A stretch of 53,787 nucleotides of DNA from Methanomassiliicoccales archaeon (GCA_030612505.1 JAUWNU010000002.1:1-53787); one strand, 5' to 3'. Counted from the first letter of the stretch, positions 3 to 28,852 are shown. Numbers and translations: made by a program. Notes: generated from the letters alone by a model not told the origin.

Positions 3-128
3 AAACATCACAACCAGAACGGAAAATGGGAAAAATATTCTCCAGCCAGAGAACAAGGATTGACAAATCATAACTGGACAATGCGAGAATTATTGACATT
101 TCCTTATCACCAAATATCAACCAATTAG
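3..128 (+). CDS. 3' end of an ORF cut by the window edge; tail tentatively resembles a DDE transposase C-terminus
   Basis: Open frame from nt 3 to TAG at 126-128 reading ...SPAREQGLTNHNWTMRELLTFPYHQISTN*. I associate the PA..GLT.H.WT..ELL tail pattern with C-termini of IS transposases (from memory, unverified). It is absent from the ORF track because its start lies outside the window. It overlaps the 3' end of the convergent gene 117..956 by 12 nt. Confidence 0.3.
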   Translation, partial: KHHNQNGKWEKYSPAREQGLTNHNWTMRELLTFPYHQISTN

Positions 129-956
129 GGGGGCACTACCTGATTTTTCTAAAAATGCGTTTTGCAGTAGAAAACCAAAATTACCATTTTTATATTCATT
201 CTTTTTGGCATGTGTTACCAGTGCCGAATCGAAATTGCTCCCAAGCGGTTTTTCCATTATCGTTCTCAAATTCTTTTTTTGCATTGAGATAAATTCCATG
301 GCCGAGATAGAATATCTCTCAAAATTCTTTTCAATATAATCAACCAAATTTTGCTTTGCTATACCTGGATCAAATTCATCTTTATTGTATACCTGGACAA
401 ACAATCCCGGATGTTCTATGTGTCTAAATGTAGGTACTATAGCAATACTGGAGATCCTATCATAATTTTCATTGTTATCAAATGCCTCAGTAGCACTACC
501 TCCGACCTTAGAGAAAACAATAATTGGCCATATCATATTTTTATTTGGAATACAATGTTTAATGATATCGATTGCTGTAATACTGCCTCCTTTCAATTGA
601 TAATCTATAATTGGGAAATCTGATAATGAAATCATTTCTATAATCATATCTTTTTCAACTAATTCATCATTTTCATCTAGTGCCCCATTAAAGAAAAGTG
701 GTAATGGAGTAATTCCTTCTGCTTTAAATCTCCCTAACCATTTTCCAAATTCTATAAGGTCTGGGGAATCCTTTACTGAATCTTTTTTCTTTTTAATTTT
801 TTTCTTAGATTTTGGTTTTGCTGGGGGTTTTCCTGACTTAGTTTCAGCTTCAATAGGAGTAACTTCAGCGGGAATGTCCAATACGTCATAGCAATCGTCT
901 ATGATTACGGCATTTACAAGAATATCGTTTATTCTTTGTTCTAGATCCGTAGTCAT
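117..956 (-). CDS. Atypical receiver (REC)-domain protein with a Lys-rich insert and an unknown ~110-aa C-terminal domain
   Basis: Beta1-like AVIIDDCYD with an acidic pair. Putative phospho-acceptor segment FPIIDYQLKGGSITAIDIIKH followed by WPIIVFSKVG, which is the CheY-like order. A KPPAKPKSKKKIKKKKD insert follows beta1. Its ATG overlaps the stop of the upstream kinase gene (ATGA at 953-956). Confidence 0.65.
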   Translation of the reverse strand: MTTDLEQRINDILVNAVIIDDCYDVLDIPAEVTPIEAETKSGKPPAKPKSKKKIKKKKDSVKDSPDLIEFGKWLGRFKAEGITPLPLFFNGALDENDELVEKDMIIEMISLSDFPIIDYQLKGGSITAIDIIKHCIPNKNMIWPIIVFSKVGGSATEAFDNNENYDRISSIAIVPTFRHIEHPGLFVQVYNKDEFDPGIAKQNLVDYIEKNFERYSISAMEFISMQKKNLRTIMEKPLGSNFDSALVTHAKKNEYKNGNFGFLLQNAFLEKSGSAPLIG

Positions 957-3900
957 TCATTCATCACCAAATCCTCTTTGAAAACCGAAATTTTAAATTT
1001 TGGCCCCCCTAATCCTTGTGAATCTTTCCGCGTTTCAAGAGTTAAATCCCAGTCAATTGCCTTAAGAATTTCCTTTGATAGGTATAATCCTAATCCTCGG
1101 CCATTTTCTTTAGTTGAGAAAAATGGACTGAACAATAAATGTTCTGATTCCGCCCTAATTTCAGGGCCAGAATTTGATATAAACAAGTTAGAATTATCAT
1201 ATTCTATGCGAATTATTTTTTCTTTCGCTAATAGAACCCAATAAAACATATTGTCTAAGATATTACATATTACTGGAAAGAATCGACTTAATGATGTAAT
1301 CACATTCAAATCTTCAGGAACATCAATTATCACGGTAATTTTATTCCTTTTCATTCGAGGTTCAAACATCCTTATAATATCTTGTAGTGTATGATTAAGA
1401 TTTATGGGTTCACGATGACTATGCCTACTTTTATGAAGAGGTTCCAGAGCCATCAATCGAGTAGAAACAGCTCTAATTCCAGAATCTAGAACTTTCAACC
1501 AATGTTCACCATACTCGTCCATCTCATATTCATTCAATTCACGAATCGCATCTCTGATGATAATTATGTATTGTGAAAATTCATGAGTCATTATATCAGA
1601 GGTTAGGCCGATATTCGCCAATTCATATAATTCATCATTCCTTCTTGCTTGCTCCATATAAATAAGGCTGTTTTCATCATAAGTCTCTTTACTAAGATTA
1701 TCATCAATTGGTATTGAATATAACGATTTATTGAAGGCCATGTTAGTTTTATCTAAATGTTTTTCTACCTCTTTTTGTAAGTTCTGCAAATCTTTATTCA
1801 ATGATTCAACATGAGATGGGATTTCATTACTATCTATGCCCCTCTTCATAACTGTTTCTAATTCAGATATTCTACCTTTTAAAACTTCTATTTTCTCATC
1901 TAAATTATCATATTCCAATATTTTCAAAATATCCTCTTTGTTTTTATCTACATACTCATCGAAATTATTAATATGATTTTCTATAGTTTCATTATTTATT
2001 TCAAGTTTCTGGCTTGCTTTAAACAATAACTCATTTGCATCTTTGAGTCGTTGTTTTGATAACTTAATATTAGCTTCATTTGAAGTCAATCTTTTCTTTA
2101 GTTCAGAATCTAGTATCTTTAATAATTTGTTAATCTCTTTTAGAGTTTTTTTGTATATTTTTTCCATTTCAGTGTTATAATTTTCAACTTTATTTCTGAA
2201 TTTAATACCACCGTATTTAATGACCGAATCCGGAGGAATTAAAGGCTCTTTAGCAACTGTCACAATTTCTTCTTTCAGATTGTTAAGTTCTTTTTCCAGA
2301 GAATTTATCCCTATAATGTTATTTTCTTCAGAAATAGAGCGAGCTCTGTTTAGTATGCTGAAATATCCTAAATTTTCGAGCAATTCATCAGCATCAAACA
2401 CATCAATTATTTCTTCGTATTCCTTTTTCTTCTTTTTTAATTTTTCTCTTTCTTTTTTTTGTTTTTTCTCTAATGCCTCTTTTTGTTTTTTTATTCGGCT
2501 TCTTTCATCAGTACTCACTGTACGTAATTCAAAACCATCTTTCAAAAAGAGTCTTGCCATTTTCATGAGGAGATCTGTACAGGTTCCCTGGAGATAATTA
2601 TAATATTCATTTTCAATGAATCCTTCTCGACTGGTTTTTTCTTCTAATTTATAGTTCAAATCTCTTTGAAGAAATATTCTACCAAACGAGTTTCTGTGGC
2701 TAAAAATCCAAGTTCCTGCTTTTAAAGTCCGCCTTTTTTCAATGCCTAAAAAATCATTTTCAGGTTCACCATATGGTAAAATTCTAGAACTATCTATATA
2801 AACACGGATGCCTCCTTTCTCTAATCCCCTTCTTGAAATCAAACTTTGGATTTCATTCCATTCGTCTTTATTGAGATTTGTTTCGAATTCTCTACCCTCA
2901 ACATGACAAACTTCGATTTCAAAAGATCCACAATCTGAATACCTTTTCTGACCAAATTGATCCATTAATGGAAGTCCGTTTTTCAAAATTTTATTAACTG
3001 GCTCAATTAATTTATTGGGAACTCCTCTCATGAATAATTGGCCTTTGAATTTAGTGACACCATCATCATCCATTGCAATCGTGCCTTTGAATTTAATATC
3101 ATACATTTCCTCATAGTGTATTTCTTCTAAATCTTTTTCAATAAAGGGTTTTAAGTCATCTCCTTTACAATATAGTCTTGATTCGATATCTTGATTATTT
3201 AGAAGCCACATAAGTGTTTTTGAGAATCTAGACAAGGTTTGTTCATTGATAGGAAGAGTCAGATCCCAATTTGTTCTTAGAGAAGCAATATATAAAATTG
3301 TGCCAGTCTTATCCTTGCTCCATTCAATTTCTTTAATCAAATCTAATAATAGTTTGTAATTTGGTTTGAAATTATTAATCTCAATGAAAACGTTGTTAAA
3401 AAGATCAAATTGATCATCGAGAATATATTTATTCATTCTTTTAGCCTCTACAAACGGTACCCTATTTGCTTCCTGATAGTCCCTAAAATAATCTACAAGT
3501 TTATGGTCGGATTTATTTTTAGCACTAGTGAACCAACCATCTAATGCCAGATTGGATAGTTGAGCACCGACTAATTCTTCTACCAGATTATTAATGTTAG
3601 ATTTGTTAATAAATGGGACATGCTTATAAGGTATGGATACGTTTTCAAGTAAGAGATTTGGGTTTTGAAATAATCCCCAATTAATGTAGCTAATTACCCA
3701 ATGAGAATCTTTGGTTCTAGATATTATTAACAAATCTTCGCCTAAAGCATCAACTGCTAATCGACCTACACCTTTAGCACCTAACATTGGCCTACCTTTG
3801 GCAGTAGTTTTTCTGTTTTTTTTATTTGTAGTTCCAAGTACTAACCATTTGTCTAGGAAATCATCCTTTGACATTCCACTGCCGTGATCTGCCAAAACTA

Positions 3901-4024
3901 TGGCATCGTTCTCATTTTCTCCTGTTCCAAAATGCATTTCTAAATAGGGTGAATCAGCATCATGGGAGTTTTTCACCAGCTCGTTTATTGCAGTAACACC
4001 GTCTCTTATCTGCTGCCTGCCCAA
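953..4024 (-). CDS. Hybrid ATPase/histidine kinase: N-terminal GHKL (MORC/HSP90-like) ATPase, ~400-aa middle region, ~280-aa Lys/Glu coiled coil, H-box and C-terminal HATPase_c
   Basis: N-terminus: INELVKNSHDAD, ADHGSGMS, GAKGVGRLAV (GHKL N, G1 and G2 boxes). C-terminus: H-box MTHEFSQYIIIIRDAI (about nt 1571-1591), N-box ICNILDNMFYWV, SNSGPEI, FSPFFSTK and GRGLGLYLSK. The 3-kb ORF has no frame disruptions. Confidence 0.8.
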   Translation of the reverse strand: MGRQQIRDGVTAINELVKNSHDADSPYLEMHFGTGENENDAIVLADHGSGMSKDDFLDKWLVLGTTNKKNRKTTAKGRPMLGAKGVGRLAVDALGEDLLIISRTKDSHWVISYINWGLFQNPNLLLENVSIPYKHVPFINKSNINNLVEELVGAQLSNLALDGWFTSAKNKSDHKLVDYFRDYQEANRVPFVEAKRMNKYILDDQFDLFNNVFIEINNFKPNYKLLLDLIKEIEWSKDKTGTILYIASLRTNWDLTLPINEQTLSRFSKTLMWLLNNQDIESRLYCKGDDLKPFIEKDLEEIHYEEMYDIKFKGTIAMDDDGVTKFKGQLFMRGVPNKLIEPVNKILKNGLPLMDQFGQKRYSDCGSFEIEVCHVEGREFETNLNKDEWNEIQSLISRRGLEKGGIRVYIDSSRILPYGEPENDFLGIEKRRTLKAGTWIFSHRNSFGRIFLQRDLNYKLEEKTSREGFIENEYYNYLQGTCTDLLMKMARLFLKDGFELRTVSTDERSRIKKQKEALEKKQKKEREKLKKKKKEYEEIIDVFDADELLENLGYFSILNRARSISEENNIIGINSLEKELNNLKEEIVTVAKEPLIPPDSVIKYGGIKFRNKVENYNTEMEKIYKKTLKEINKLLKILDSELKKRLTSNEANIKLSKQRLKDANELLFKASQKLEINNETIENHINNFDEYVDKNKEDILKILEYDNLDEKIEVLKGRISELETVMKRGIDSNEIPSHVESLNKDLQNLQKEVEKHLDKTNMAFNKSLYSIPIDDNLSKETYDENSLIYMEQARRNDELYELANIGLTSDIMTHEFSQYIIIIRDAIRELNEYEMDEYGEHWLKVLDSGIRAVSTRLMALEPLHKSRHSHREPINLNHTLQDIIRMFEPRMKRNKITVIIDVPEDLNVITSLSRFFPVICNILDNMFYWVLLAKEKIIRIEYDNSNLFISNSGPEIRAESEHLLFSPFFSTKENGRGLGLYLSKEILKAIDWDLTLETRKDSQGLGGPKFKISVFKEDLVMNE

Positions 4025-4065: not shown

Positions 4066-5217
4066 CTATACAGATACCTCCACAGGTTTTTCTTCAGGTA
4101 TTATTACTTCATTAATTTGGGGCGAATATTCATCTAAAGCTTGTATTACAGTGTTAAAAACATCAACACCTAATCTTATTGGTACGGCATTACCTATCTG
4201 CCTGCCAGACGCCATCAAGCCGCCTTCAAAAATAAAATCATCGGGAAATGTTTGAAATCGAGCTGCGTGTCTAATTGTAATCCCATGATTTTTTGTGGGA
4301 TGAACAAACCGGCCTTTTGATGGATTTATGCAGCCAGTCGTAATTGTTGGACCCGGCTTTCTGGGATCAATCCGCCCATATACATCAAGATGTCCTCTAT
4401 AATTTTCATGACAGGGAAGAGTTCTATTTGATTGCAATCGGCTTCCGCCGTTTTTTGGTGTGCTTTTGAAAACCTCTATTATTCTTTCAGTATGGTTCAT
4501 ATGATTTAAGTTTGGGTCTTTTTTAGAAAGAGGTTTAAACACCACTTTGGCGTTAATCCATGCTGTTTTTTCATCCTTTTTCACCTCTTCTGATTTTGGG
4601 TTGTAATGAGTCGGCTGTGGTGGCCAGTCTAATTTTAATGGAAGGCTAGAAGATATGCCGATAATGAATACTCGCTCACGATTTTGGGGCACGCCATAAT
4701 CTTTTGCATTGAGGAGTGTAGGCCCATAAACACTGTATCCAGATTTTTTAGCCAGTTTTAGAAATTTGTTTAGATAATCAGCATGGCGAGGCCACAAAAG
4801 GCCAGACACGTTCTCTATAACGAAAACCTTTGGCTCTATAATTTTTACAAAATCAAAATATTTGATTATCAGAGTATTTCGAGGATCATCCACGCCTGCA
4901 CCTTTTATTCGGTGTGTAGAAAACCCCTGACATGGTGGGCCACCCATTAACACATCACATTCGCCAGGAAGCATGTCTGCGAGTTTCAGTAATTTATAAG
5001 GGTCAACTTCATTGATGTCATCTTCAATAAGTTCAGGTGGATTTTCCTGGCCATAAATAAAGTTTCTTCGATAAGTTTCGCAGGCATGTCTATCAAATTC
5101 AATGGCGGCCTTTACATGGATACCTACTTCTTTAGCAGCTAGGGTGAAGCCTCCTGCTCCTGCAAACAAATCGATTCCAGTGTAATAGCCATTCTTCACC
5201 TTCTTCCCTCCATTCAA
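4066..5217 (-). CDS. dcm: DNA (cytosine-5)-methyltransferase
   Basis: All canonical m5C-MTase motifs are present in order: DLFAGAGG (I), GGPPCQGFS (IV), ENV (VI), QNRERVF (VIII), RFQTFPDDF (IX) and GNAVP (X). It lies 41 nt upstream of the kinase gene on the same strand. Confidence 0.95.
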   Translation of the reverse strand: MNGGKKVKNGYYTGIDLFAGAGGFTLAAKEVGIHVKAAIEFDRHACETYRRNFIYGQENPPELIEDDINEVDPYKLLKLADMLPGECDVLMGGPPCQGFSTHRIKGAGVDDPRNTLIIKYFDFVKIIEPKVFVIENVSGLLWPRHADYLNKFLKLAKKSGYSVYGPTLLNAKDYGVPQNRERVFIIGISSSLPLKLDWPPQPTHYNPKSEEVKKDEKTAWINAKVVFKPLSKKDPNLNHMNHTERIIEVFKSTPKNGGSRLQSNRTLPCHENYRGHLDVYGRIDPRKPGPTITTGCINPSKGRFVHPTKNHGITIRHAARFQTFPDDFIFEGGLMASGRQIGNAVPIRLGVDVFNTVIQALDEYSPQINEVIIPEEKPVEVSV

Positions 5218-5652
5218 TCTGACATCTGATTATATATTATATTAATCTTATGATGGCCACATCTTTAAACTCCTTTATTATAATTTCCTTACGTTCACTA
5301 CACTATCGCTTCCACAGGCACGTTAGGGATAATAAATCTCAACCTGCCAGTCTTACAATTGCCCTATTTCCCTCTCTCGACAATTCCGAAATCACACAAC
5401 CTTTTTAGATTACTTCACAACCGAATTTTCCCCAATGGCTTTCACTGGCTTCGCAATCTGAGATCTCGATATTCTGGATGTCCTAGAAAGTGACATGAGC
5501 CTCTTTTCTCAAAAAGAAAGCTTGCTCTAAATAGAGTTAAATATCTGATTGAGAATATGAAAAATGGGAAAATTGCGATAAAGAAAATAAATGGTGAGAA
5601 TAATTGACAGATAACTATACCGAATATTACCAAAAAACAGGATTGATAACTA

Positions 5653-6930
5653 ATGAGTGAATTTGATAATTACATCGAATTGTTCAATAACTGGAAAATA
5701 ATTTCAGACACTAAAAAGAAGACATGCTGTAATTTTATCATTGAAACATCACAAGCGAGAGAGCTATCAATGGAAGAAATAGAATTGATTGCAAACGGTC
5801 TCGCCAAAAGTGGTTCTGCCTGGAAATGGCCAAACGATGTCCAACCAATAACAGATGTATGCTCTACTGGAGGGTCTGGATCAATGACAACGTTATTGTG
5901 CCCATATCTTATAGCAACTCAGAAAATTAAGATTCCACAGGTAAGTGTACTAGGGTCTATAGCGGGAGCTATTGACACATTAGGAATCATTCCGGACTAT
6001 TCCTATCAGTTGTCTCATAAGGCTATGTTGAAAGCACTTAGGACCGCTGGAATCGGGCATACATTAAATACTCCCGATATGGCCCCTGCGGATTTATTCC
6101 TTTTTAACCAACGGAAGGCACAAAATGCAGTGAATCTACCTGATTTAGTTATTTCAAGTTTATTAGCAAAAAAAATTAGTTCTGGACTTACAAAGGTTCT
6201 TTTCGATGTCCGAGTAGGTCCAGTTGGAAACTTTGGGACTACTATCGAGGAAGCCGAGCAGAATTGCAGAAAATTGATACAAGTCGGTAGAAATATTGGA
6301 ATTGATTGTACATGTGTTCTAACTAATCATGATACCGCGCCAATTCCTCTTTTTGGGAGATTGGAGAGTCTAAATGTATTATGGTCTGTAGCCAATGGAA
6401 TTGATTTAGATGCCTGGACCTTAAGCCATATTGAAACCAATATTGATATTGCAGCTATTGCATGCGAATCCATAAAAGGGGGTAGTATTAGAGGTTGGAC
6501 CGAGTCAATTCGAAAATCTATTCTAAACGGCGATGTTTTTGATTTAATAAGATATAATTTAAATAGTCAAGGAAGTAGCATAGAAAGTTTGGAAATGCTC
6601 ATAACTAAATATAATAAAACAAAAAAATATGCGATATATTCTCCTTCTGACGGTTATATTAATAGATTTGATTTTGTTAATCTCCGGAACATATTCCAAC
6701 AAGCTTATTTTGAATCCCCCATAATTAGTGGCTTCGATTCACCATTAGGAATAATCCTTAAAGTACGTGAAGGTGTTGAAGTTCATAAAGGTGATTTAAT
6801 AATGGAGTTAAGGGTCAATAATAAAGAACTTTTAAAACATACCGAAGAACTTAAAAAGGTTGTACTCATAGATAAAAAGGCAAAATCCCCCCCTCAAAAA
6901 AAGATTTTCAAGGTGATAAAAAATGGATGA
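5653..6930 (+). CDS. Divergent thymidine/AMP phosphorylase-family (glycosyltransferase family 3 + PYNP_C-like) protein
   Basis: It aligns by eye with the in-window AMP phosphorylase: CSTGGSGSMTTLL vs HSIGGAPGNKITLL; LLAKKISSGLTKVLFDVRVGPVG vs VMAKKKAVGADYFLLDIPTGPG; C-terminal GYINRFD...LKVREGVEVHKGDLIMEL vs GYVTFLD...LKKRGDHIEKDQPMFEI. It lacks the archaeal N-terminal extension. The SxR...GTxD segment is altered (VSVLGSIAGAIDTLG). Confidence 0.8.
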   Translation: MSEFDNYIELFNNWKIISDTKKKTCCNFIIETSQARELSMEEIELIANGLAKSGSAWKWPNDVQPITDVCSTGGSGSMTTLLCPYLIATQKIKIPQVSVLGSIAGAIDTLGIIPDYSYQLSHKAMLKALRTAGIGHTLNTPDMAPADLFLFNQRKAQNAVNLPDLVISSLLAKKISSGLTKVLFDVRVGPVGNFGTTIEEAEQNCRKLIQVGRNIGIDCTCVLTNHDTAPIPLFGRLESLNVLWSVANGIDLDAWTLSHIETNIDIAAIACESIKGGSIRGWTESIRKSILNGDVFDLIRYNLNSQGSSIESLEMLITKYNKTKKYAIYSPSDGYINRFDFVNLRNIFQQAYFESPIISGFDSPLGIILKVREGVEVHKGDLIMELRVNNKELLKHTEELKKVVLIDKKAKSPPQKKIFKVIKNG

Positions 6931-9900
6931 ACCTAATTATTCTTGCTTTCTGCACCCTCGCATTAGATCACAAGATCATCCAGATATTTGTCCAGAGTGC
7001 GGAAAATCATACACCGCTCCATTAGATGAGCCTCCTAAGTCGATAAAGGGAATGAATGTCATTAAATCTCTTGACAGGGGCTTCTATGGCGTGACATATC
7101 TCGTTAAGAATCCTATTACTCAAGGATTATTTACCATGAAAGTGATTCCAAAAAAAACTTATTCGAAAGAAGAAGGTTACAACAAAGATTTCAACCAAGA
7201 GATACAAAATCATAAAAAAGCTTCCGATAAAGAAATGACTGTTCCAAAACTCATTGATGCAGGAGAATGTGAGCTAGAAATTAGTGATTATACAATAAAT
7301 TGTTATTTTATGCAACTAGAATACATAGAAGGAGTCAGTCTTGAAGAATTCAAAAATTCGGGTGTGATTTCAGCCACTAGAATTTCTCAGGTCGCATATG
7401 ATTTATTTGAATTTCTATGGCAATTAGAAAAAGAGATGTTACATCACAACGATCTTCATAGTAGAAATATTGTAATCAAAACAGACTCTGTTGAATTTGG
7501 TAGAATAAATGCATTGGATAAAACTATTAGAACTTATGTAATTGATTTAGGTTCTGTCAGTGATAAGAATAGATCCGGTTGCGAGCATTATCGTGATATT
7601 ACCTGGATTGTACAACATGTCGGAGATATGATTTTCACATATTTGAAAAGAAATGATATTCCAGATAAAGAACTAAGGGTATTATCACGCCTTAATTCTT
7701 TAGTTCAACATTGTTTAGGAGAAGAGTATATAAGGGAAATTACACCAGAGGATTACTGTAATCAGATTAGAGATATCGTTAAACAAGGTGAAAATCCCTG
7801 GGCTCAACCTAAAGAATTAGTGACTCCAGGTGATCATTATAACGCTCAAACAATGCCCACGTATTATGCATCACACCTTTTTTGTGATCCTGAAAATAAA
7901 TGGTTTAACAATTTGATAAAACCTGGTCCGATACTTTTGACAGGGATGAGAGGATGCGGAAAAACTATATTGTTAAAATCGGTTCATTTTTTAGCCAGGG
8001 CGCAAAAATGTGAGGGAGAAGATACAGAAAAGTTCCTAAAGAGATTGGAAAATGAAAAGCATGTTGCATTTTTCGTTTCTTGTTCAGCTTTGTTAACGGA
8101 TCCAAAGAGCAAAAAATTGCACTTTCCTAATCATAAGCTCATTCTTGCTTTTTCATTGGATTTCATAAGGTGTGTTCGTTTTTGTGAATTAGAAAAAATC
8201 GGAGAAATTAATTATAAACAACTCGAACACCTTTGTAATACGCTGAAATTACTTATTCCATGGTTTGAGAAACCCTCTAATATTAACGATACTAATGCTA
8301 TTGAAAGGAGCATTGAAAAAGCAATTTTAAGAGCAAGGAGTATTAAGGATAATGAAGCAAGTGAACTCAATGTTCATAAAGATTTTGATAGGTTAGCTTC
8401 AATTATCCAAAGTTCTATAGATATCTGGAATAACAAACATATATTGTTTTTACTTGATGACGTTTCAGATCGTTACCTTCGTCAAGACAATGTAGATGAA
8501 GTTTTGAGTCAACTATGTCATCAAGCATCCAGATTTTCCTTTAAAATATCAACAGAAACACCTTCTCTAAGATTGAGGACTGGTGGTGGAGAATTTAGTC
8601 GTCTTGATAGGGACTATGAAGAATTTGATTTAGGAAATGAAGTTATGCAGGAATTGAAACATTCAAATTCAACATTTGTAGAGGATATGTTAAGAAAACG
8701 ATTAGATATCACCCCTCAATATAAGGGTTTATCTCCAAAATATATTTTAGATCAACAACCACTAATCGAAGTCGCTAGGAATTTAGTGACGAGATCTGGT
8801 AAACGAAGAGGAAGTTATTGGGGCATCAATGTCCTAGGAACCTTATCTACGGGTGATATTGGGGATTCCATTCTAATGTTTCATCGCATGCTTCAAAAGA
8901 TGACTCCAACAGATAATTCTGTCTCTAGAGAAGATCAAGATTCTGTTATATTCGATTTTTCTGAAAGAAAATTACGAAAACTTGCAATTCAAGACAAATG
9001 GCTTTATGACCATGCTATAGCGTTTGCCCAGGCGAGTCAATTGGAACTTAGAAAAAGTTATTCCCCTGAGCGGGGGAAACAACAAAGGATAAGACAATAT
9101 AACGAGGTATTTTTGAAGGTTGATCCAGAAGGGGCAGATGATATATTCGATAAGATTAATAGATTGGTGGAAATGGGTATATTTATTTATGCGGGAGGGA
9201 CACCTCGTTCTAAAGGACCAAAGCAAAAAGCCTCCTTATATCTCAAGCTAGCTTATCGAAAGATACTGGGAGTGACCAACCTCATGCCAATAAGTTTCAT
9301 GGATAGATTCGAGATATCTGGAGATAACCTTATCAGCTGGCTTAACAATCCAACGGCCAATAAACTTAGAAAGACAGTTGGTGCAAAACAAATTGAAATG
9401 GATAAAGTAACATTGAAAGTAATTGAGGAAACTGACTGGATAGAACAGGATGAAAAAATCATTATAGAACATAAACTAGTAATGGATAAATCAACTCAAT
9501 CTAGATTGTTATTATACAATAAACCCGAAGAAACTGCCTCTATGATCAAATGTAAATTACCTTTCACAATTGAGACAGAAACTCTTCGTTCTCTCAAGAA
9601 AACCGATATAAAAAATAAACACATAATTGGGGCCCTCGGTTTTGAAGATAGAAGCATAGGAACATGGAAGAATATATTGTCTATTGATAAACCAAGTGGG
9701 GTGACCTTCATTGGCTATAAAATAAAAGGATTTAGTGATGAAATATGTGACCTTCTTGAGAAGGAATCTATTCCCTTTGATATCGTTAATTATGACGATA
9801 TATTTTGTTTTAAAGAAAATGAGATAGATAAAGAAAAGATTAAGAATTTTGTAAAAGAACTTCCAACTAATGACATAATATTAGATGTGACTTCTCTGAC

Positions 9901-10579
9901 TAAGCCTTTGATTTTTCTTCTTACTTTTGAAATTCTTAGGCGAAATGGAAGGCTTAATGTAATTCACACTCTCGCGGATGAATATTTACCGAATTCTAAT
10001 GAGGTTTCTGAGGTCTTGAGTCTGTTAGAGGAAGAAGATGCACCCATATTTTTTAAAAAGGCAGACGAATTAATACCTGGCGAATATCCCGAAGAGAGGA
10101 TAACAATCTGGCAGAATAGAGACCCTTGCTCAAATGTCTATTTAATATGCTTCATTTCATTGAAATACTCTAGAGTTCAGAAACTCTTAGAAGAATTGCC
10201 CGTTGATTGTCTTGATATAATTTATCCACTGAGTTTAGATGGAAAAGATTCAGCAAAGAGCAAATTCGCAGAAGAAATAGCAAATACATTTGTTCATGAG
10301 ACGGGGAATATATGGGCTACAGGGTCTAACGATCATGTAGAAGCCTTTCAAAAATTGAAAGAGCTCTATACTAAATATGCGTTAGAAGCAGGAAATAATG
10401 TTGAAATTGGCCTTACAGGTGTAAAAATACACATGGTTGCTGCAGGGATGTTAGCGTCAATTGCAAACATTTCTGGGGTATATTACACACCAGCTAGTTT
10501 TGATCCCGAGAAGTATACCAAGGGCACAGGAAAGACTAATTTTACAACAATAGAAATAAATAAATATAATCCTTATTAA
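6923..10579 (+). CDS. 1218-aa multidomain protein: Zn ribbon, Ser/Thr protein-kinase-like domain, P-loop NTPase (STAND/ORC-like), wHTH-like region, C-terminal Rossmann-like domain
   Basis: CFLHP..CPECG ribbon. Kinase motifs GFYGVTY (Gly loop), FTMKV (Lys), HHNDLHSRN (catalytic loop) and IDLG (DFG-like). Walker A GMRGCGKT at 7943-7966 and Walker B ILFLLDD at 8441-8461. The C-terminal ~330 aa (from about 9620) alternates beta/alpha-like segments and has DVTSLTKP and LTGVKIH loops. There is an 8-nt overlap (ATGGATGA) with the upstream gene. Confidence 0.85.
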   Translation: MDEPNYSCFLHPRIRSQDHPDICPECGKSYTAPLDEPPKSIKGMNVIKSLDRGFYGVTYLVKNPITQGLFTMKVIPKKTYSKEEGYNKDFNQEIQNHKKASDKEMTVPKLIDAGECELEISDYTINCYFMQLEYIEGVSLEEFKNSGVISATRISQVAYDLFEFLWQLEKEMLHHNDLHSRNIVIKTDSVEFGRINALDKTIRTYVIDLGSVSDKNRSGCEHYRDITWIVQHVGDMIFTYLKRNDIPDKELRVLSRLNSLVQHCLGEEYIREITPEDYCNQIRDIVKQGENPWAQPKELVTPGDHYNAQTMPTYYASHLFCDPENKWFNNLIKPGPILLTGMRGCGKTILLKSVHFLARAQKCEGEDTEKFLKRLENEKHVAFFVSCSALLTDPKSKKLHFPNHKLILAFSLDFIRCVRFCELEKIGEINYKQLEHLCNTLKLLIPWFEKPSNINDTNAIERSIEKAILRARSIKDNEASELNVHKDFDRLASIIQSSIDIWNNKHILFLLDDVSDRYLRQDNVDEVLSQLCHQASRFSFKISTETPSLRLRTGGGEFSRLDRDYEEFDLGNEVMQELKHSNSTFVEDMLRKRLDITPQYKGLSPKYILDQQPLIEVARNLVTRSGKRRGSYWGINVLGTLSTGDIGDSILMFHRMLQKMTPTDNSVSREDQDSVIFDFSERKLRKLAIQDKWLYDHAIAFAQASQLELRKSYSPERGKQQRIRQYNEVFLKVDPEGADDIFDKINRLVEMGIFIYAGGTPRSKGPKQKASLYLKLAYRKILGVTNLMPISFMDRFEISGDNLISWLNNPTANKLRKTVGAKQIEMDKVTLKVIEETDWIEQDEKIIIEHKLVMDKSTQSRLLLYNKPEETASMIKCKLPFTIETETLRSLKKTDIKNKHIIGALGFEDRSIGTWKNILSIDKPSGVTFIGYKIKGFSDEICDLLEKESIPFDIVNYDDIFCFKENEIDKEKIKNFVKELPTNDIILDVTSLTKPLIFLLTFEILRRNGRLNVIHTLADEYLPNSNEVSEVLSLLEEEDAPIFFKKADELIPGEYPEERITIWQNRDPCSNVYLICFISLKYSRVQKLLEELPVDCLDIIYPLSLDGKDSAKSKFAEEIANTFVHETGNIWATGSNDHVEAFQKLKELYTKYALEAGNNVEIGLTGVKIHMVAAGMLASIANISGVYYTPASFDPEKYTKGTGKTNFTTIEINKYNPY

Positions 10580-10736: not shown

Positions 10737-11150
10737 TCAAGACTCCGACAACTCGATTATCAAATCGAAATCTTCTTTTTCAATTTCGAATAAGTATGCC
10801 TGCATTGACATTTTCATTGCTCGTTGCATATTATCGGAAAGACCATGGCATTCTTTCAATTCTCTGAGTTTAACTGAATTGTTTATTAACTTCACATCGT
10901 TGAGTTTAACTATCAATCGAGAGTCACCCATCTCCATCTTAGAAGCTACTGACGATTTTGCTACGAAAGATGATTGCCATTTTTTAGATGTCAATGAATA
11001 TGTCAAATAGTGCAATACTTTATCTCCTGGCCTAATATTTTTCAACATATTACGATATCTAAGGGTATTTGGGGCATGGAGACCTTTTTCACCTGATATT
11101 TTTGGCTCGATGGAGAAGTCTCCACTTGCAACTTCAATCCAATAGTTCAT
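10737..11150 (-). CDS. EVE/PUA-like domain protein (possible modified-base reader)
   Basis: Pattern MNYWIEV...RYRNMLKNIRPGDKVLHYLT...SVKLRELKE...LFEIEKEDFDLI resembles the EVE-domain consensus (xYWl...RN..a...m.pGD.vlfY...l..lk...l..it.eef..i). Recognised by eye only. Confidence 0.5.
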   Translation of the reverse strand: MNYWIEVASGDFSIEPKISGEKGLHAPNTLRYRNMLKNIRPGDKVLHYLTYSLTSKKWQSSFVAKSSVASKMEMGDSRLIVKLNDVKLINNSVKLRELKECHGLSDNMQRAMKMSMQAYLFEIEKEDFDLIIELSES

Positions 11151-16577: not shown

Positions 16578-16994
16578 TTATATCTTAATCATGCCTTTTT
16601 CTTTGAGATAATTCCCTGGGCCAGATACACTAAAGGCTATAGCTAGCATGTCTTCAAGAGGTTCCTGTATTGATTCCTCTGATTCTAATCTAGAAATAAG
16701 GAGTTTTAATGAATCACCTAGTTTATTGAATATGTTTTCATCAAAATCCATTGTTTGGTCACCCGCTTTTAACCTCTGAATTCTTTCATTTAGTGTTTGA
16801 TGACAGGCTTGTAATACAAAATCTGCCAACAAGACATCTTTTGAAAATGAATAACGATAAGTTCTGCTGGTTATTCCATATGCTGCGGTGAAGTAATACA
16901 ATTTCTTTTCAACATTGGGCTCTTTCCTCATCATTCTCTCCACTGTTTTAAGTTCATTGACAAGCTCTTTTCTAAAGAATTTAGTTTGCGACAT
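16578..16994 (-). CDS. Hypothetical helical protein, coupled to the upstream wHTH gene
   Basis: 138-aa ORF that overlaps the 3' end of 16981..17490 by 14 nt. No recognisable motifs. Confidence 0.55.
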   Translation of the reverse strand: MSQTKFFRKELVNELKTVERMMRKEPNVEKKLYYFTAAYGITSRTYRYSFSKDVLLADFVLQACHQTLNERIQRLKAGDQTMDFDENIFNKLGDSLKLLISRLESEESIQEPLEDMLAIAFSVSGPGNYLKEKGMIKI

Positions 16995-17490
16995 ACATAT
17001 CCTCTCCTAGGCCTATTGGCCATGTTACTCCAAATGCGGGGGCTTTTTTTGGTTCACTATTTCCACACCATTGAAGAATTCCTAAATCTGATACCTCGGG
17101 TGAAAATTCAGGCATTTCTGGCTTTGCTTCTACAGATGTTGTGGCTGCGGATGGCTTGGGTGCATGTTGTTTCCAATAGTCATGAATTTCATGTAGTGTT
17201 TCTTCTCCCAAAATGTGCTCAATGATGGTATTGTTGAAATTCTCAATTGCAATGACAAAAGGAGAATCTGGATTGATTTGATAATAATCATTTCCTCCTC
17301 GTCTTTGGGAAACTTCCATGATTCCCCACTCAACAAATTTCTTAATCACATTGTTTGCTGTTGGTCTTGATACCTCTGCTTCCTCTGCAAGTTCTGAGAT
17401 ATTGAAATCCATGTCCTTTAATGGTAACAAGAATTCCAAAATCTTTAATTCACAATTGCCCCCGAGTATTCCTTCAAATGGCCCTGCCAA
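16981..17490 (-). CDS. Winged-helix (MarR/ArsR-like) DNA-binding protein
   Basis: ISELAEEAEVSRPTANNVIKKFVEWGIMEV...YYQIN fits an HTH plus wing pattern. The C-terminal half is unknown. Confidence 0.65.
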   Translation of the reverse strand: MAGPFEGILGGNCELKILEFLLPLKDMDFNISELAEEAEVSRPTANNVIKKFVEWGIMEVSQRRGGNDYYQINPDSPFVIAIENFNNTIIEHILGEETLHEIHDYWKQHAPKPSAATTSVEAKPEMPEFSPEVSDLGILQWCGNSEPKKAPAFGVTWPIGLGEDMYVAN

Positions 17491-17857: not shown

Positions 17858-20800
17858 CTAAGTGGCTTCCCCCTCCACAATCCTAATCTCATCCTCAGTA
17901 AGATTGTACAACTCATAAACCAGCCCATCAATCTCCCTATCAGCCGCATCAATCTGCCTCTGCGCCCTGGTTTCAGCGTCCGGCGTGCTGGCCTCTTTAA
18001 TGTCCTTGTGTAGTTTCAGCATCCTCTCAACAAGCTTCACCATTTTGTCATGCCTGGCCACATCATTTTTGTCGTCAAAGTTGATGGTGCGGATTGGGAT
18101 ATTTTTGATGTATTGCTTATTGTATGCATAATACCCACCACTAAATTGACTACTTATAAGTTTAATATACCAATCAAATAAGTTTGAATTCAAAAGCCCT
18201 GTAAGATATAGATATTTTAATGATTTATATTTCTCATTAAGAGTAATTCCATATCCTCCACCGCCTCCACCACCACTTCCAACAAAATAGTAGAAATTTG
18301 TTTCATCAAAATAAAATGAGCCATGGCTGGCAATACTTGGTGTTAGAATTTTCATTTGTTCCATTTCGCTTAAATTTTGTGTTCTTCCAAAAGCATACCA
18401 TTTATCATGCTTCCATTTTCCTCTTTCTCTGGATTCTAGTTTTAAGCGATTTTCATTCAGATATTTCCAGATATTTGGAAATTCTTTTTCCATTTCCTTG
18501 ATAGGAATTAATTGCGCTTTATTTTCTACTAATTTATAAGGAAATAATATTGATTTAGTAATGTTTGAAACATGATATCGTTTAAGATTGACAGAACCTT
18601 TGCATAATGGATGAATTAGTTCTTTCTCTAATGTATAAGTGCTTCCTGTAGCTTCTGACCTATACTTGCCAGTGGACTCCTTTTTCATTATAAATACTGG
18701 GTCCGCTCCAGTAATCAATCCTTGGAAAATTTTACTTGTAACATCTTCTAATTTTATTGGTATGTCGTTTAAGCGTTCAAATAAATCACTTCCTGGACCA
18801 ACAATAAAATTCCATTCATCAGCCCCAGATGGATGATTAATTGAACCCTTTTTTGCATCCTTTTGTAATTTCCAGGAGAGTAAATCATTAACGTCAATAT
18901 AATTGAATTTGTTATTATCTTTTCCTGTAAGAAACAAAAGGCAAGTGTATGTTGTAGCCCCATCAAAAATTTGCAAATCATTGAAGTTGACAATTTCATC
19001 CAGATGCTTGCCCTCACTGATTAATTCTCGAATGGGCTGGCCATACTTTGCCTGGAAGAATTTATGGGGGCAAATGTATCCCATTTTTCCATTCTTGTTG
19101 ATTAGTTGAAGGGCCTTTTCTATGAAAACAACATAGATGTCATAATTTCCCTTGCTGGCGGATTTGTAAACTCTCTTATAATGCTCCACTTCGACAGGGG
19201 CCCACTCTTTCATTGTCTGGATGCGAATATAAGGCGGATTCCCAACCACCGCATCAAACCCTCCGGCCTTCATAATATCGGAAAACTCTTCCTGCCAGCT
19301 GAACGGATTAATCCTGTTAAGTTCATCATCTCGCTCATCATCATTCATGTCCTGAAGATGGTCGATTATGTCGAAATCGATTAGTGAGTTTCCGCACTTT
19401 ATGTTGCTGCCCAGGTCTGGTAATGCTGGCTCCTTGAACCAGGATTTCACATTGGCAATGGATTCTTTACTCTCTCCTTCAAGAGCTTTTAGAAGTAGGT
19501 TTAATTTGGTAACTTCAACTGCCTGGCCGTCAATGTCCACGCCGTGAATATTGTTCAGTAAAATTCGTTTCTTTTCCTGTAATGTTAATTGCCATTCGTC
19601 CTTTCGCTTTTCGAATACCTGGTCCTTGTGCTTTTTTGGGCTATTGGCCATATACCATTCAAGATGCTTGTTCAGCATTTTCTGGTAGGCTACTATCAGG
19701 AATGAGCCGGAACCGCAGGCAGGGTCCAGGATTTTGATTTTAGCCAGTTCGTCCAGATTCTTGCCTTCGCAGAGCTTTACCACTGTGTTTTCTACAATGT
19801 ATTCCACAATGTAGGTTGGCGTGTAATAAACTCCGCCAGCTTTCTTGACCTCTGGCTTTTCCTCGATCTTGGCAGTTTTTCCGCTGGCTGATAATTTGAT
19901 AACCTTGCCTAAGAATTGTTCATAGACCTGGCCTAAAATATCTGCCGGAATAACATCAAACTGATACGGTGAATTTGGATAATACAAGTCCCACAGAATG
20001 CTTGCTAGTACTTTGTCATCAACAATTAGCTTGCGCATTAATCGGTCCGGTTTTGTGCTTCTTGATTTGTCATGTGTGAAATGGAATAATCCAGAATTAT
20101 ATTTTGCATCTGCCAGTTGAAAGACATCTATCATATGTCTGTAAATATCTTTCTTGTTCATCATTATGTCATAAAGCTGATTCTCTGGCTCTGTTTTTCT
20201 GTCCTCACAAATACGCAAAAATAGAATTCTATCAATAAGCCTCTGAACTGCAAAATTCACTTCCTCGGTGGTGAATTCATTATTCTTGGCAATATTTTTA
20301 GCCAGTTCCTCACGCCAACCTTCTATTTCCTTGAGAATTTCTGCGTCAACCTCTGATGTTCCACGCTTCTTTGCCTGGGCATATTTGTCGAATGAACCCT
20401 TGAGAATTGCATCCTTTGTGAATATAGCAACAAGTTCATCCCAGCGTTCTTCCAGTTCATCGAAGGAGATGTAAAGAATTCTGCCCTTTGTCGGGTCATC
20501 AGTTCTAACTGGCCTGAACCTGCAATCATAAACTGAAATATCTTCAAAATTTGTGAGAATGGATAATGGTAATTTTGCGCTCCAGGCATATCTTTTCAAC
20601 TGGAATGCTGGCATCTTATCCGAGCATATGTCAACCGATGGCTTTTTTGCTTCAACGAAGAACTTGGTAGTGCCGCTTAACCTGAAAGAATAATCTGGGG
20701 TTTTTATGCTGCCTTCGACTTCCAATGATTCTTCGGTTACAACATCTCGATACTGGGGCGCATTTCCTTGGGTATTGTCAACGTCCCAATCCAGTGCCTT

Positions 20801-20920
20801 AAAAAGAGGGTCTAAAAATTCAATTCTTACATCTGCCTCCCTGTAGCTGGATGACCTGTACTGCTTGCGGTTGTTTTTGTACCGTTCAACAAGTTTTGAA
20901 ATCTCTTCCGGTGCTGCCAT
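17858..20920 (-). CDS. Type IIG restriction-modification enzyme (fused PD-(D/E)xK nuclease + N6-adenine methyltransferase + target recognition domain)
   Basis: N-terminal TPDYSF...FFVEAKKP (D...ExK). MTase motif I ILDPACGSGSFLI and motif IV GNPPYIR. A long C-terminal specificity region completes 1020 aa. Confidence 0.9.
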   Translation of the reverse strand: MAAPEEISKLVERYKNNRKQYRSSSYREADVRIEFLDPLFKALDWDVDNTQGNAPQYRDVVTEESLEVEGSIKTPDYSFRLSGTTKFFVEAKKPSVDICSDKMPAFQLKRYAWSAKLPLSILTNFEDISVYDCRFRPVRTDDPTKGRILYISFDELEERWDELVAIFTKDAILKGSFDKYAQAKKRGTSEVDAEILKEIEGWREELAKNIAKNNEFTTEEVNFAVQRLIDRILFLRICEDRKTEPENQLYDIMMNKKDIYRHMIDVFQLADAKYNSGLFHFTHDKSRSTKPDRLMRKLIVDDKVLASILWDLYYPNSPYQFDVIPADILGQVYEQFLGKVIKLSASGKTAKIEEKPEVKKAGGVYYTPTYIVEYIVENTVVKLCEGKNLDELAKIKILDPACGSGSFLIVAYQKMLNKHLEWYMANSPKKHKDQVFEKRKDEWQLTLQEKKRILLNNIHGVDIDGQAVEVTKLNLLLKALEGESKESIANVKSWFKEPALPDLGSNIKCGNSLIDFDIIDHLQDMNDDERDDELNRINPFSWQEEFSDIMKAGGFDAVVGNPPYIRIQTMKEWAPVEVEHYKRVYKSASKGNYDIYVVFIEKALQLINKNGKMGYICPHKFFQAKYGQPIRELISEGKHLDEIVNFNDLQIFDGATTYTCLLFLTGKDNNKFNYIDVNDLLSWKLQKDAKKGSINHPSGADEWNFIVGPGSDLFERLNDIPIKLEDVTSKIFQGLITGADPVFIMKKESTGKYRSEATGSTYTLEKELIHPLCKGSVNLKRYHVSNITKSILFPYKLVENKAQLIPIKEMEKEFPNIWKYLNENRLKLESRERGKWKHDKWYAFGRTQNLSEMEQMKILTPSIASHGSFYFDETNFYYFVGSGGGGGGGYGITLNEKYKSLKYLYLTGLLNSNLFDWYIKLISSQFSGGYYAYNKQYIKNIPIRTINFDDKNDVARHDKMVKLVERMLKLHKDIKEASTPDAETRAQRQIDAADREIDGLVYELYNLTEDEIRIVEGEAT

Positions 20921-27833: not shown

Positions 27834-27920
27834 ATTCAAGATTAATCGAAGCAAGCTTGATTGTTGAATTAGGAGGCATATTCATAAATACAAGTAAACC
27901 AATATTTACAGAGGTTGGCC

Positions 27921-28832
27921 ATGAACATACAAGAGACTTCTGTCAAGATAGAAGATATGACAATCCGCGGAGCCGGACGAATTGCCAGACATGCCTCATT
28001 GGCGCTGAAGGACTATGCTAGCTCTTATTCAGGTAATGACCTGGAAGAATTTCTTCAGGGCCTCGATAAAGCCGCAGTTAGATTGATTTCCACAAGGCCA
28101 ACAGCTATTTCACTCTTCAATGGAGTGCAATTAACTCTAAAAGGTGTTAAAGAGGAATCTGAGTTGGAATCTGCCAGGCAATTACTAATAAAAAATTCTG
28201 ATGCTTTCTGCGAACTGTCAAATTCAGCATATGGCAAGATGGCCAGTTATGGTCCAGACCTGGTTCCGGAAACCGGAAAAAAGGCAATAACAATCTGCAA
28301 TTCCACTGCCGCAATATCTGTCATCAAGGCAGCATACCAGGCAGGAAAAATTACTGGTGTTTATGCATGCGAGACCAGGCCGAAAAAGCAAGGTCTTATT
28401 ACTGTTCGTGAGCTGGCAGAGGCCGGTGTTCCAGTAACCTTAATTGTTGACTCGGCAATGAGATATGTCATGCCCCAGGTTTCTATTGCTTTCATTGGAA
28501 CCGATTCTCTGGAATCCGATGGCAGCGTTATTAATAAAATTGGAACCCAGATACTTGCAGTAACCGCTAGAGACTTCAATGTTCCGGTTTATTCATGCAC
28601 TGAAACCTACAAGTTCTTGCCGCCAAGCAAGGCAGGCCAGCGAGTTCAGATCGAGCTAAGGCCTATAGACGAGATTATTGCTCCCGAGGAACTGCCGGAT
28701 GGCGTGGAGGTCTACAATCCCGTATTTGATAGGGTGCCGCCGGAGCTCATTACCGGCATAATTACTGAGGTCGGGGTAATCAAGCCCTCCCAGGTATCCA
28801 GCATCTCTGAGAGATATCTTGAGGGAATTTAA
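27921..28832 (+). CDS. Ribose-1,5-bisphosphate isomerase (eIF-2B alpha/beta/delta-like family)
   Basis: IRGAGRIARHA...ICNSTAA...ETRPKKQG...VDSA...IGTDS pattern of the e2b2/MtnA family. It is adjacent to the AMP phosphorylase. The ATG at 27921 follows GAGG; the track start at 27915 is TTG. Confidence 0.8.
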   Translation: MNIQETSVKIEDMTIRGAGRIARHASLALKDYASSYSGNDLEEFLQGLDKAAVRLISTRPTAISLFNGVQLTLKGVKEESELESARQLLIKNSDAFCELSNSAYGKMASYGPDLVPETGKKAITICNSTAAISVIKAAYQAGKITGVYACETRPKKQGLITVRELAEAGVPVTLIVDSAMRYVMPQVSIAFIGTDSLESDGSVINKIGTQILAVTARDFNVPVYSCTETYKFLPPSKAGQRVQIELRPIDEIIAPEELPDGVEVYNPVFDRVPPELITGIITEVGVIKPSQVSSISERYLEGI

Positions 28833-28852
28833 ATTTACAGGAGGTATATAAT

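Follow-up and report, generated by a model that had tools for sequence, protein, structure and literature searches.

Layout of the locus

Genes A and B are an overlapping gene pair in a stretch of 53,787 nucleotides (nt) from a Methanomassiliicoccales archaeon (GCA_030612505.1, JAUWNU010000002.1:1-53787), which is referred to here, at its full length, as the window. An original prediction, made from the sequence alone, took the pair for an undescribed two-gene conflict system. The two open reading frames (ORFs) lie exactly where that prediction placed them, both on the plus strand, and share the 8 nt ATGGATGA. Gene A encodes a remodelled protein of the thymidine phosphorylase/pyrimidine nucleoside phosphorylase (TP/PyNP) fold, gene B encodes a large kinase-ATPase-CARF protein, and a C5 cytosine DNA methyltransferase gene (Dcm) lies upstream. 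Related cassettes were found at ~125 loci in more than 10 bacterial and archaeal phyla, and across these the working unit joins B to Dcm (plus Vsr) and in most cases includes A. The description as a two-gene system did not survive this comparison: Dcm, taken originally for part of a flanking operon, accompanies B more constantly than any other gene, and ~20% of B loci have no A. The central features are as follows.

Gene A: 5653..6930, plus strand, 425 aa, TP/PyNP-fold protein
Gene B: 6923..10579, plus strand, 1218 aa, Zn ribbon, Ser/Thr kinase, ORC/Cdc6-like AAA+ and tandem CARF
Dcm: 4066..5217, minus strand, C5 cytosine DNA methyltransferase (Pfam DNA_methylase E=8e-67; PADLOC MTase_II E=3.5e-88)
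Spacer between Dcm and gene A: 5218..5652, no strand assigned, divergent intergenic region with a single, unsupported 63-aa ORF

The Dcm gene of the window is divergent from gene A and is also the first gene of an operon that encodes a GHKL-type histidine kinase (HK) protein and a response-regulator (RR) protein. No remnant of Vsr was found in the spacer (5218-5652), and tblastn with Vsr gave no significant match anywhere in the window.

Gene B, a kinase-ATPase-CARF protein

Gene B can be divided into five regions, all on the plus strand.

Zn ribbon: B residues 1-40, 6923..7042, plus strand, with C8, H11, C23 and C26, of which C8, C23 and C26 are invariant
Eukaryotic-type Ser/Thr protein-kinase domain: B residues 41-300, 7043..7822, plus strand, with GFYG, K73, HHNDLHSRN (D177/N182) and IDLG (D208)
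ORC/Cdc6-like AAA+ (STAND-like) ATPase, then helical and winged-helix-like modules: B residues 301-828, 7823..9406, plus strand
Linker, poorly conserved and predicted to be disordered: B residues 829-873, 9407..9541, plus strand, predicted local distance difference test score (pLDDT) <50, mean identity 14-18%
Tandem CARF, two Rossmann-like units: B residues 874-1218, 9542..10579, plus strand, with GFE.R at 906-910, D988-x-T990-xxx-K994 and G1166-x-K1168

The ribbon, the Ser/Thr kinase and the Walker A/B NTPase had all been named in the original prediction, and profiles or invariant motifs confirm each of them. Motif conservation was scored in 88 family members, 75 from loci that contain A and 13 from loci that lack it. 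The kinase passes the Pfam Pkinase model PF00069 (E=5e-9, residues 46-189, 36.3 bits against a cutoff of 31.7), and its residues G53, K73, D177, N182 and D208 are invariant in 75/75 proteins from A-containing loci and in 12-13/13 from A-less loci. Its nearest solved relatives are a bacterial PknB-type kinase (4eqm) and CDK2, and there are weak PADLOC matches to mad6 and PD-T4-6. The ATPase passes Pfam ORC-CDC6-like PF24389 by a wide margin (E=1e-23, residues 304-595, 84.4 bits against a cutoff of 27), its Walker A motif GMRGCGKT, with an Arg in the P-loop, and its Walker B motif LLDD are invariant, and Foldseek relates it to ORC4/5 and RdrA.

The C-terminus of gene B is a CARF domain by both hidden Markov model (HMM) and structure, which bears out a guess made originally from two loops only, DVTSLTKP and LTGVKIH. 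In the structural model of residues 296-1218 (pLDDT 88.8, predicted template modelling score 0.82), the top Foldseek matches of the C-terminus in the PDB are Can1 (6sce, E=2e-5), Cam1, Cad1, Csm6, Sso2081, Sis0455 and Csa3. Foldseek probability is 1.0 for Can1, Cam1, the CARF of Cad1, Sso2081, Sis0455 and Csa3, with target-normalised template modelling (TM) scores of ~0.4-0.57 for small single-CARF targets and 0.30 for Can1. Can1 itself carries tandem CARF domains, and Sso2081 and Sis0455 are ring nucleases. The CARF signature [DN]x[ST]xxx[RK] is present as DVTSLTK, with D988 in 88/88 members, T/S990 in 88/88 and K994 in 85/88. GFE.R and G1166-x-K1168 are likewise invariant or nearly so in these members. 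The kinase, ATPase and CARF sites of gene B are intact as judged from these motifs.

Gene B belongs to a known, computationally described family, and in this respect the claim of an undescribed system does not hold. It matches the PADLOC model CARF6--CARF_STK_AAA (PDLC01925) over its full length (E=1.6e-238, residues 4-1211 against profile positions 2-1185 of 1187). The family was described as proteins with a Zn ribbon, a S/T/Y kinase, an AAA+ with Arg in the P-loop and a CARF domain, and kinase-mediated signalling was proposed for them (Makarova et al. 2014, Front Genet 5:102, PMC4012209). The domain order of gene B is identical to that of the described family, including the Arg of GMRGCGKT.

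Gene A, a TP/PyNP fold with a rebuilt active site

Gene A is a full-length, three-domain protein of the TP/PyNP fold, divergent enough to fall under all curated cutoffs. It matches NCBIfam TIGR02644 over residues 36-402 (E=9e-34) with 117 bits against a cutoff of 409, the TP equivalog model with 115.8 bits against 269, and Pfam Glycos_transf_3 with 21.8 bits, under the gathering score of 27. Against solved structures, the profile of the gene A subfamily finds PyNP first (7m7k, E=2e-52; 1brw, E=1e-49), then Escherichia coli TP (2e-39), and the archaeal AMP phosphorylase structure more weakly (1e-26). The AlphaFold2 model has a pLDDT of 92.5, with Foldseek TM scores of 0.80-0.83 to PyNP/TP (1brw, 2wk5, 4x46).

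Gene A had been proposed as a divergent paralogue of the AMP phosphorylase encoded elsewhere in the window. The full TP-family fold stands; the local paralogy was rejected, as the two proteins share only 22% identity (E=2e-11) and bacterial PyNP scores better. The match to the AMP phosphorylase model TIGR03327 is 93 bits against a cutoff of 535, and the archaeal N-terminal extension is absent, as had been noted.

The active site was compared in 110 non-identical members of the gene A family aligned with Bacillus stearothermophilus PyNP (BsPyNP), whose numbering is used here for the TP/PyNP residues. In TP/PyNP, Lys81, His82 and Thr120 serve in phosphate binding and catalysis, and Arg168, Ser183 and Lys187 bind the pyrimidine base. 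The base-binding residues are retained almost without exception (Arg in 109/110, Ser in 110/110 and Lys in 110/110; R154, S169 and K173 in the window). The catalytic and phosphate residues are replaced in all 110: Lys81 by I/V/L/F, His82 by A/P/C and Thr120 by G/A, which in the gene A of the window are V69, C70 and A106. The loss of Arg and Thr from the Gly-rich loop, seen in the original prediction, is real (R112 to L100 and T120 to A106), and it is accompanied by a 2-residue deletion in the loop and by the loss of the Lys-His pair ahead of the STGG loop. The STGG loop itself is kept. The phosphate site is partly preserved, S71 and T80 (gene A numbering, also for the residues that follow) being invariant and most members having Lys at position 96 and Arg at 102. 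Six residues, S77, R187, N193, R236, E238 and H259, are invariants new to this family.

On this reading of the alignment, gene A is under strong constraint and is predicted still to bind a thymine- or uracil-type base, yet to be no canonical phosphorylase. Its genes lie in defence islands, not in nucleotide-salvage operons with intact catalytic residues. Gene A matches no PADLOC model. In the literature that could be searched, nothing was found that links a TP-family protein to defence.

Linkage of A and B

A motif search with gene A gave 38 genome loci. These come from Thermoplasmata, Bathyarchaeia, Bacteroidota, Actinomycetota, Acidobacteriota, Planctomycetota, Desulfobacterota, Nitrospinota, Alphaproteobacteria, Bacillota, Zixibacteria and Omnitrophota. 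A full-length B directly follows A in 36/38 of them, usually with an overlap of 8, 4 or 1 nt. In the reverse direction, a search with gene B gave 80 metagenome loci, and of the 65 that could be assessed, ~51 (~78%) have A directly ahead of B. The pairing of A and B is far beyond chance; in support of the original view of the pair as a unit, it is syntenic across phyla, translationally coupled and situated in defence islands. The two proteins have also evolved together, with a Spearman correlation of 0.74 between A-protein and B-protein similarity. The only region of B that tracks A is the Zn ribbon, a trivial linkage because the ribbon physically adjoins A.

B proteins that lack A are interspersed with those that have it, and the 13 examined keep the kinase, Walker and CARF motifs, bar single substitutions at some positions in one. 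Both facts imply that A is an accessory and not an obligatory source of signal. A is therefore a dedicated yet dispensable accessory of B, and Dcm plus B form the core. A without B is nearly never seen. The exception is a small group of TP-like proteins, ~31% identical, that follow a CapP-like M78 protease and a P-loop protein. The protease gene overlaps the TP-like gene in three loci with neither B nor Dcm (PADLOC capP E=1e-10 to 3e-13):

L004: 171-2352, CapP-like M78 protease overlapping TP-like gene
L006: 444-3755, CapP-like M78 protease overlapping TP-like gene, with a 378-aa P-loop protein (weak AAA_28 match) ahead of it
L019: 55-2228, CapP-like M78 protease overlapping TP-like gene

Phage records and viral contigs yielded no homologue of the cassette. 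B is present together with Dcm-NaeI, and without A, on one Loktanella megaplasmid, which is non-mobilisable. Short B homologues of 783-797 aa were considered as CARF-less variants and rejected, since they proved to be a split gene and a B that stops close to the edge of its contig.

Decayed or interrupted cassettes were also seen. B is broken into several ORFs in L045 and L046, is interrupted by insertions or insertion sequence elements in L028 and L005, and is divided between ORFs of 797 and 350 aa in L132. Such cases suggest frequent inactivation, as in costly defence genes.

The close coupling of A and B in translation and evolution could mean that A handles a signal. In one form of this idea A would produce the ligand of the CARF or a precursor of it, such as an unusual nucleoside or nucleotide or a (deoxy)ribose-phosphate; in the other it would destroy the ligand, setting a threshold or switching the response off. 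Either way, the kinase would be the sole output. CARF domains are ligand sensors, no cyclase lies nearby, and apart from Dcm the operon encodes no small-molecule enzyme other than A. Its presence at ~78% of B loci recalls the optional ring nucleases of type III CRISPR and would fit an off-switch, and its phosphate site is remodelled and not destroyed. However, the CARF signature persists where A is missing, A similarity does not co-vary with the CARF region of B, and A relatives occur with a CapP-like protease where there is no CARF protein. To our knowledge, no TP-fold enzyme makes or degrades a second messenger. This is the main rival to the mechanism preferred below, and is considered rather unlikely.

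Association with C5 methylases

When the ORFs neighbouring the cassette were clustered, C5 cytosine methylases formed the single dominant family (34/46 loci in the first set and 28/35 assessable loci in the second). Dcm lies within a few kb of A-B in ~33/38 genome loci, and overall in ~80-87%. It is co-oriented with A, and overlaps it or stands no more than 10 nt from it, in L010, L012, L015, L016, L025, L027, L030-L032, L034, L035 and L038. Vsr is present in ~72/126 loci (~57%), and the full gene order Dcm-A-B-Vsr is found in L016 and L025. Loss of A does not entail loss of the methylase, which is kept in 11/15 A-less loci.

These arrangements might indicate a role in the upkeep of 5-methylcytosine (5mC) and not in defence, with A-B handling a by-product of Dcm (thymine from 5mC deamination or the turnover of methylated nucleosides) or regulating Dcm. 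The pair, like Vsr, occurs where Dcm does, in some operons it stands between Dcm and Vsr, and A keeps a pocket for a thymine-type base. Most Dcm-Vsr pairs in nature, however, have no A-B, and some cassette loci have no Dcm at all. A 1218-aa CARF/STAND/kinase protein is typical of conflict systems and not of repair, and the patchy distribution, a composition that suggests horizontal transfer and the defence-gene neighbours also speak against upkeep, which is judged quite improbable.

The Dcm genes are of quite different lineages. Dcm similarity shows no correlation with A similarity (rho 0.003) and next to none with B similarity (rho 0.11). This points to dependence on C5 methylation in general and not on one methylase; with Dcm lineages so freely swapped, B is probably independent of any one recognition sequence. 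After overall B similarity was removed, the CARF region (residues 875-1218, window 9545-10576) does track the neighbouring Dcm (Mantel rho 0.30, p ~0.011, 30 loci). The signal is strongest for residues 1111-1170 (Mantel p ~0.001), and no positive signal was seen elsewhere in B. Its source may be functional, or composition or taxonomy may confound it, and it is not relied on here.

This signal bears on whether the cassette might work in the manner of restriction-modification (R-M) or of BREX/Pgl. B, perhaps bound to Dcm, would use its ORC-like ATPase and winged helix to search DNA for Dcm sites that lack methylation and would keep unmodified DNA from replicating, the CARF acting only as an allosteric modulator. 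Pgl/BREX type 2 and MADS are likewise built on a methylase, a kinase and an ATPase, there are weak matches of the kinase and ATPase of B to MADS mad6 and mad8, ORC-like ATPases bind DNA, and the weak Mantel correlation is positive. Against this, quite different Dcm lineages have been exchanged without a matching change in B overall, windowed conservation revealed no hypervariable target-recognition-like region in B, and there is no nuclease, helicase or PglZ-type partner. The match of B to the MAD6 model (NCBIfam NF047741) is 21.7 bits against a cutoff of 460. Such a mechanism is regarded as unlikely.

Other neighbours of the cassette

Other defence-type neighbours across the loci include BrxL, MzaB/MzaC, type II enzymes, AspBHI-like and GmrSD type IV enzymes, UvrD/PD-(D/E)XK and HerA. 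In two loci, A-B lies between Dcm and homologues of MzaB/MzaC (PADLOC E=6e-98 and 2e-166), which places it inside or beside a Mza-type defence system:

L030: 14835-19096, MzaB/MzaC homologues
L035: 10895-12373, MzaB/MzaC homologues

GHKL ATPases are present in ~15 loci, including the MzaB-MzaC of these two. A GHKL-HEF_HK protein of the window type stands beside A-B again in L109, L116 and L118, two of which have no nearby Dcm, and the Response_reg_2 protein recurs only in L118. The GHKL-HK/Response_reg_2 genes look like a separate conflict module that travels with the cassette, a possible companion and not part of the core.

In a few loci without Dcm, the neighbour of A-B is a type IV enzyme, twice AspBHI-like and once GmrSD-type (L013:8529-9815, L078:1426-3129 and L011:6140-9154). 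AspBHI-type enzymes cut 5mC-modified DNA, and GmrSD-type enzymes cut DNA with modified cytosines. In these three loci the cassette keeps company with cytosine-modification genes even without a methylase, small as the numbers are.

Across ~125 loci, the neighbouring 5-10 kb contain no recurrent cas or cyclase family. In the window, no cas gene was found among the proteins scanned and there is no CRISPR-related Rfam match. These results bear on the proposal that B is an ancillary effector of a type III CRISPR or CBASS system elsewhere in the genome, whose CARF senses cyclic oligoadenylates made in trans while Dcm and the TP-like gene are island company. The closest structural matches, Can1, Cam1, Cad1 and Csm6, are cA4/cA6-binding CARF proteins, and the PADLOC model name places the family in a CARF catalogue built around CRISPR signalling. 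Yet the linkage to Dcm, Vsr and A is too regular for chance, and the hosts include Sphingomonas, Arthrobacter and Chitinophaga, groups in which type III systems are uncommon. Together with the lack of recurring cas and cyclase genes, this makes sensing in trans very improbable.

Surroundings of the cassette in the window

The remaining features of the window are listed below.

Response_reg_2 protein (Pfam): 117-956, minus strand, same operon as the GHKL-HK protein and Dcm
GHKL-HK protein: 953-4024, minus strand, 1023 aa, HATPase_c_3 at the N-terminus, HEF_HK, HATPase_c at the C-terminus, co-oriented downstream of Dcm
EVE (PUA-like) domain gene: 10737-11150, minus strand, convergent with gene B (Pfam E=1.6e-8)
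Large fn3/Ig surface protein: downstream of gene B, from the scan of window proteins
Helix-turn-helix genes: 16578-17490, preceding the type IIG R-M gene
Eco57I/MmeI-type IIG R-M fusion: 17858-20920, minus strand, 1020 aa, within the low-GC island (1-21 kb)
Ribose-1,5-bisphosphate isomerase (IF-2B family) and AMP phosphorylase: 27915-30382, plus strand, isomerase directly upstream, archaeal AMP-salvage pair
Genuine AMP phosphorylase: 28853-30382, plus strand (TIGR03327, 661 bits)

The flanks are those first described, with the pair lying between a Dcm/GHKL-kinase operon and an EVE gene. EVE-type domains can read modified bases; the EVE gene had 0 matches in the other cassette loci. The composition contrast reported originally (25-32% GC in the pair against 45-52% around it) is real although overstated: gene A has 35.8% and gene B 34.5% GC (~35%), the left 21 kb 36.8%, and the remainder of the window 42.9% (~43%). 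The right-hand 30 kb is ordinary archaeal chromosome, including a XPD helicase, and the AMP-salvage pair indicates that the host is an archaeon. No transfer RNA, Rfam family or CRISPR feature was found in the window as a border of the island.

Proposed mechanism

The locus is read here as a copy of a widespread 5mC-linked cassette that likely serves in defence against mobile elements, in which B is the switch, A a second output arm and Dcm the trigger logic. This reading is preferred tentatively, with somewhat less than an even chance of being correct. The core would be Dcm, usually with Vsr, and the giant protein B. B would act as a STAND-like switch whose C-terminal tandem CARF binds a small phosphate-bearing nucleotide ligand, and its ORC/Cdc6-like AAA+ would turn ligand binding into an ATP-dependent change of conformation or oligomeric state. 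Output would come from the N-terminal Ser/Thr kinase, through phosphorylation of proteins of the host or the invader and a resulting arrest of growth. When B fires, A may attack thymine nucleosides or nucleotides and deplete the pool, as in RADAR, Cad1 and Detocs. Dcm would supply the self/non-self or trigger logic, B depending on C5 methylation or on the act of methylating and not on one recognition sequence. The domain identities, the preserved catalytic and ligand motifs, the gene linkage, the joint evolution of A and B and the island setting come directly from the data; defence, the nature of the ligand, which of A and B controls the other and the input from Dcm are interpretation.

Within this scheme, A is preferred as an effector because co-opted nucleoside enzymes are common effectors (RADAR, Cad1, Detocs, dCTP deaminase), because A depends on B and not B on A, because A is portable to a CapP-type cassette, and because A-less B proteins retain the CARF site. 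That the cassette is a defence system is in keeping with the signalling role earlier proposed for the architecture of B (PMC4012209).

Several points weigh against the preferred scheme. The defence role of the cassette is drawn from sequence and genomic context, and the effector role of A is argued by analogy. The cassette contains no nuclease or other classic effector, and the known makers of CARF ligands (Cas10 and CD-NTase) do not recur in its neighbourhoods. The remodelled site of A is equally compatible with a protein that binds a ligand and catalyses nothing, or with an enzyme that makes or removes a signal. The need for a C5 methylase lacks a mechanistic explanation: a reader of R-M type should evolve in step with its methylase, which B does not, bar the weak signal in the CARF region. 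In ~13-20% of loci there is no nearby Dcm.

A bolder version would make the cassette a CARF pathway without a cyclase, its trigger tied to 5mC. Dcm would mark host DNA, or act in bursts on incoming unmethylated DNA, the CARF would sense a nucleotide derived from infection, and the TP-fold enzyme would make or clear that nucleotide. If this improbable version were true, the second messenger would belong to a new class, the TP fold would have gained a new catalytic task, and a DNA methylase would be working by a new 'labelled-self' logic.

The established role of CARF proteins is to receive the cyclic oligoadenylates that type III CRISPR produces. Here, a CARF/STAND/kinase protein occurs in more than 10 phyla without a neighbouring cyclase, mostly with a C5 methylase and usually with a rebuilt TP-fold protein. 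If the cassette is a defence system, as the preferred scheme holds, it would represent a CARF pathway with a different source of ligand, the first immune use of the TP fold and a new wiring of DNA methylation to an abortive or kinase response. The cassette is amenable to direct test, since it consists of three or four genes, occurs in cultivable Bacteroidota, Actinomycetota and Sphingomonas, and has invariant residues that can be used for point mutants.

Comparison with known systems

The 2014 description of the gene B family covers the protein alone, without its gene neighbours; a phosphorylase or Dcm neighbour is absent from its text and from the supplements examined (PMC4012209). The 2025 CRISPR classification paper mentions neither a kinase nor a phosphorylase. 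No description of the Dcm/TP-like linkage was found in the searchable literature, a search that the 2020 CARF classification (PMC7498327) lies outside. Within the literature searched, the Dcm-(Vsr)-TP-like-B cassette and the rebuilt TP active site seem not to have been described previously.

Gene A shares with TP/PyNP (DeoA, Pdp; 1BRW, 1AZY, 2WK5) the three-domain fold, the STGG loop and the pyrimidine-binding Arg/Ser/Lys. It differs from them in the loss of Lys81/His82/Thr120, in a shorter Gly-rich loop, in its new invariants and in its context, which is a defence island rather than nucleoside salvage. The likeness to CapH/CapP-regulated operons is confined to the three loci in which a TP-like gene follows a CapP-like M78 protease; these lack B and Dcm, and the arrangement concerns relatives of gene A at ~31% identity and not the window.

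The analogy to Detocs (DtcA/B/C) that was drawn originally is sound as a concept, a phosphotransfer-linked sensor combined with an enzyme of nucleoside-phosphorylase type, and loose in its details. Detocs uses a His-Asp relay, with the DtcA histidine kinase, the DtcB buffer and a DtcC effector that joins a receiver to a purine nucleoside phosphorylase (PNP_UDP_1 fold). The cassette instead has a Ser/Thr kinase, a TP fold and no receiver on A, and neither A nor B matches the PADLOC models (HMMs) of Detocs.

Pgl/BREX type 2 (PglW/X/Y/Z) and MADS (mad1-8) likewise combine a DNA methylase, a protein kinase and a P-loop ATPase with no obvious nuclease. B has weak matches to MADS proteins (mad6, E=4e-11, over the kinase core only; mad8, E=4e-3). 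Both systems have N6-adenine methylases and many more genes (PglZ and others), and they have no CARF and no TP-like gene.

RADAR (RdrA ATPase with RdrB adenosine deaminase) and Cad1 (CARF-adenosine deaminase) likewise join a STAND/AAA+ or CARF sensor to an enzyme of nucleoside metabolism. The ATPase of B has a weak Foldseek match to RdrA (8hrb, E=2e-3) and its CARF has one to Cad1, with no membership in either system at the sequence level. The cassette differs from both in having a TP fold and not a deaminase, an extra kinase in B and a linkage to a methylase.

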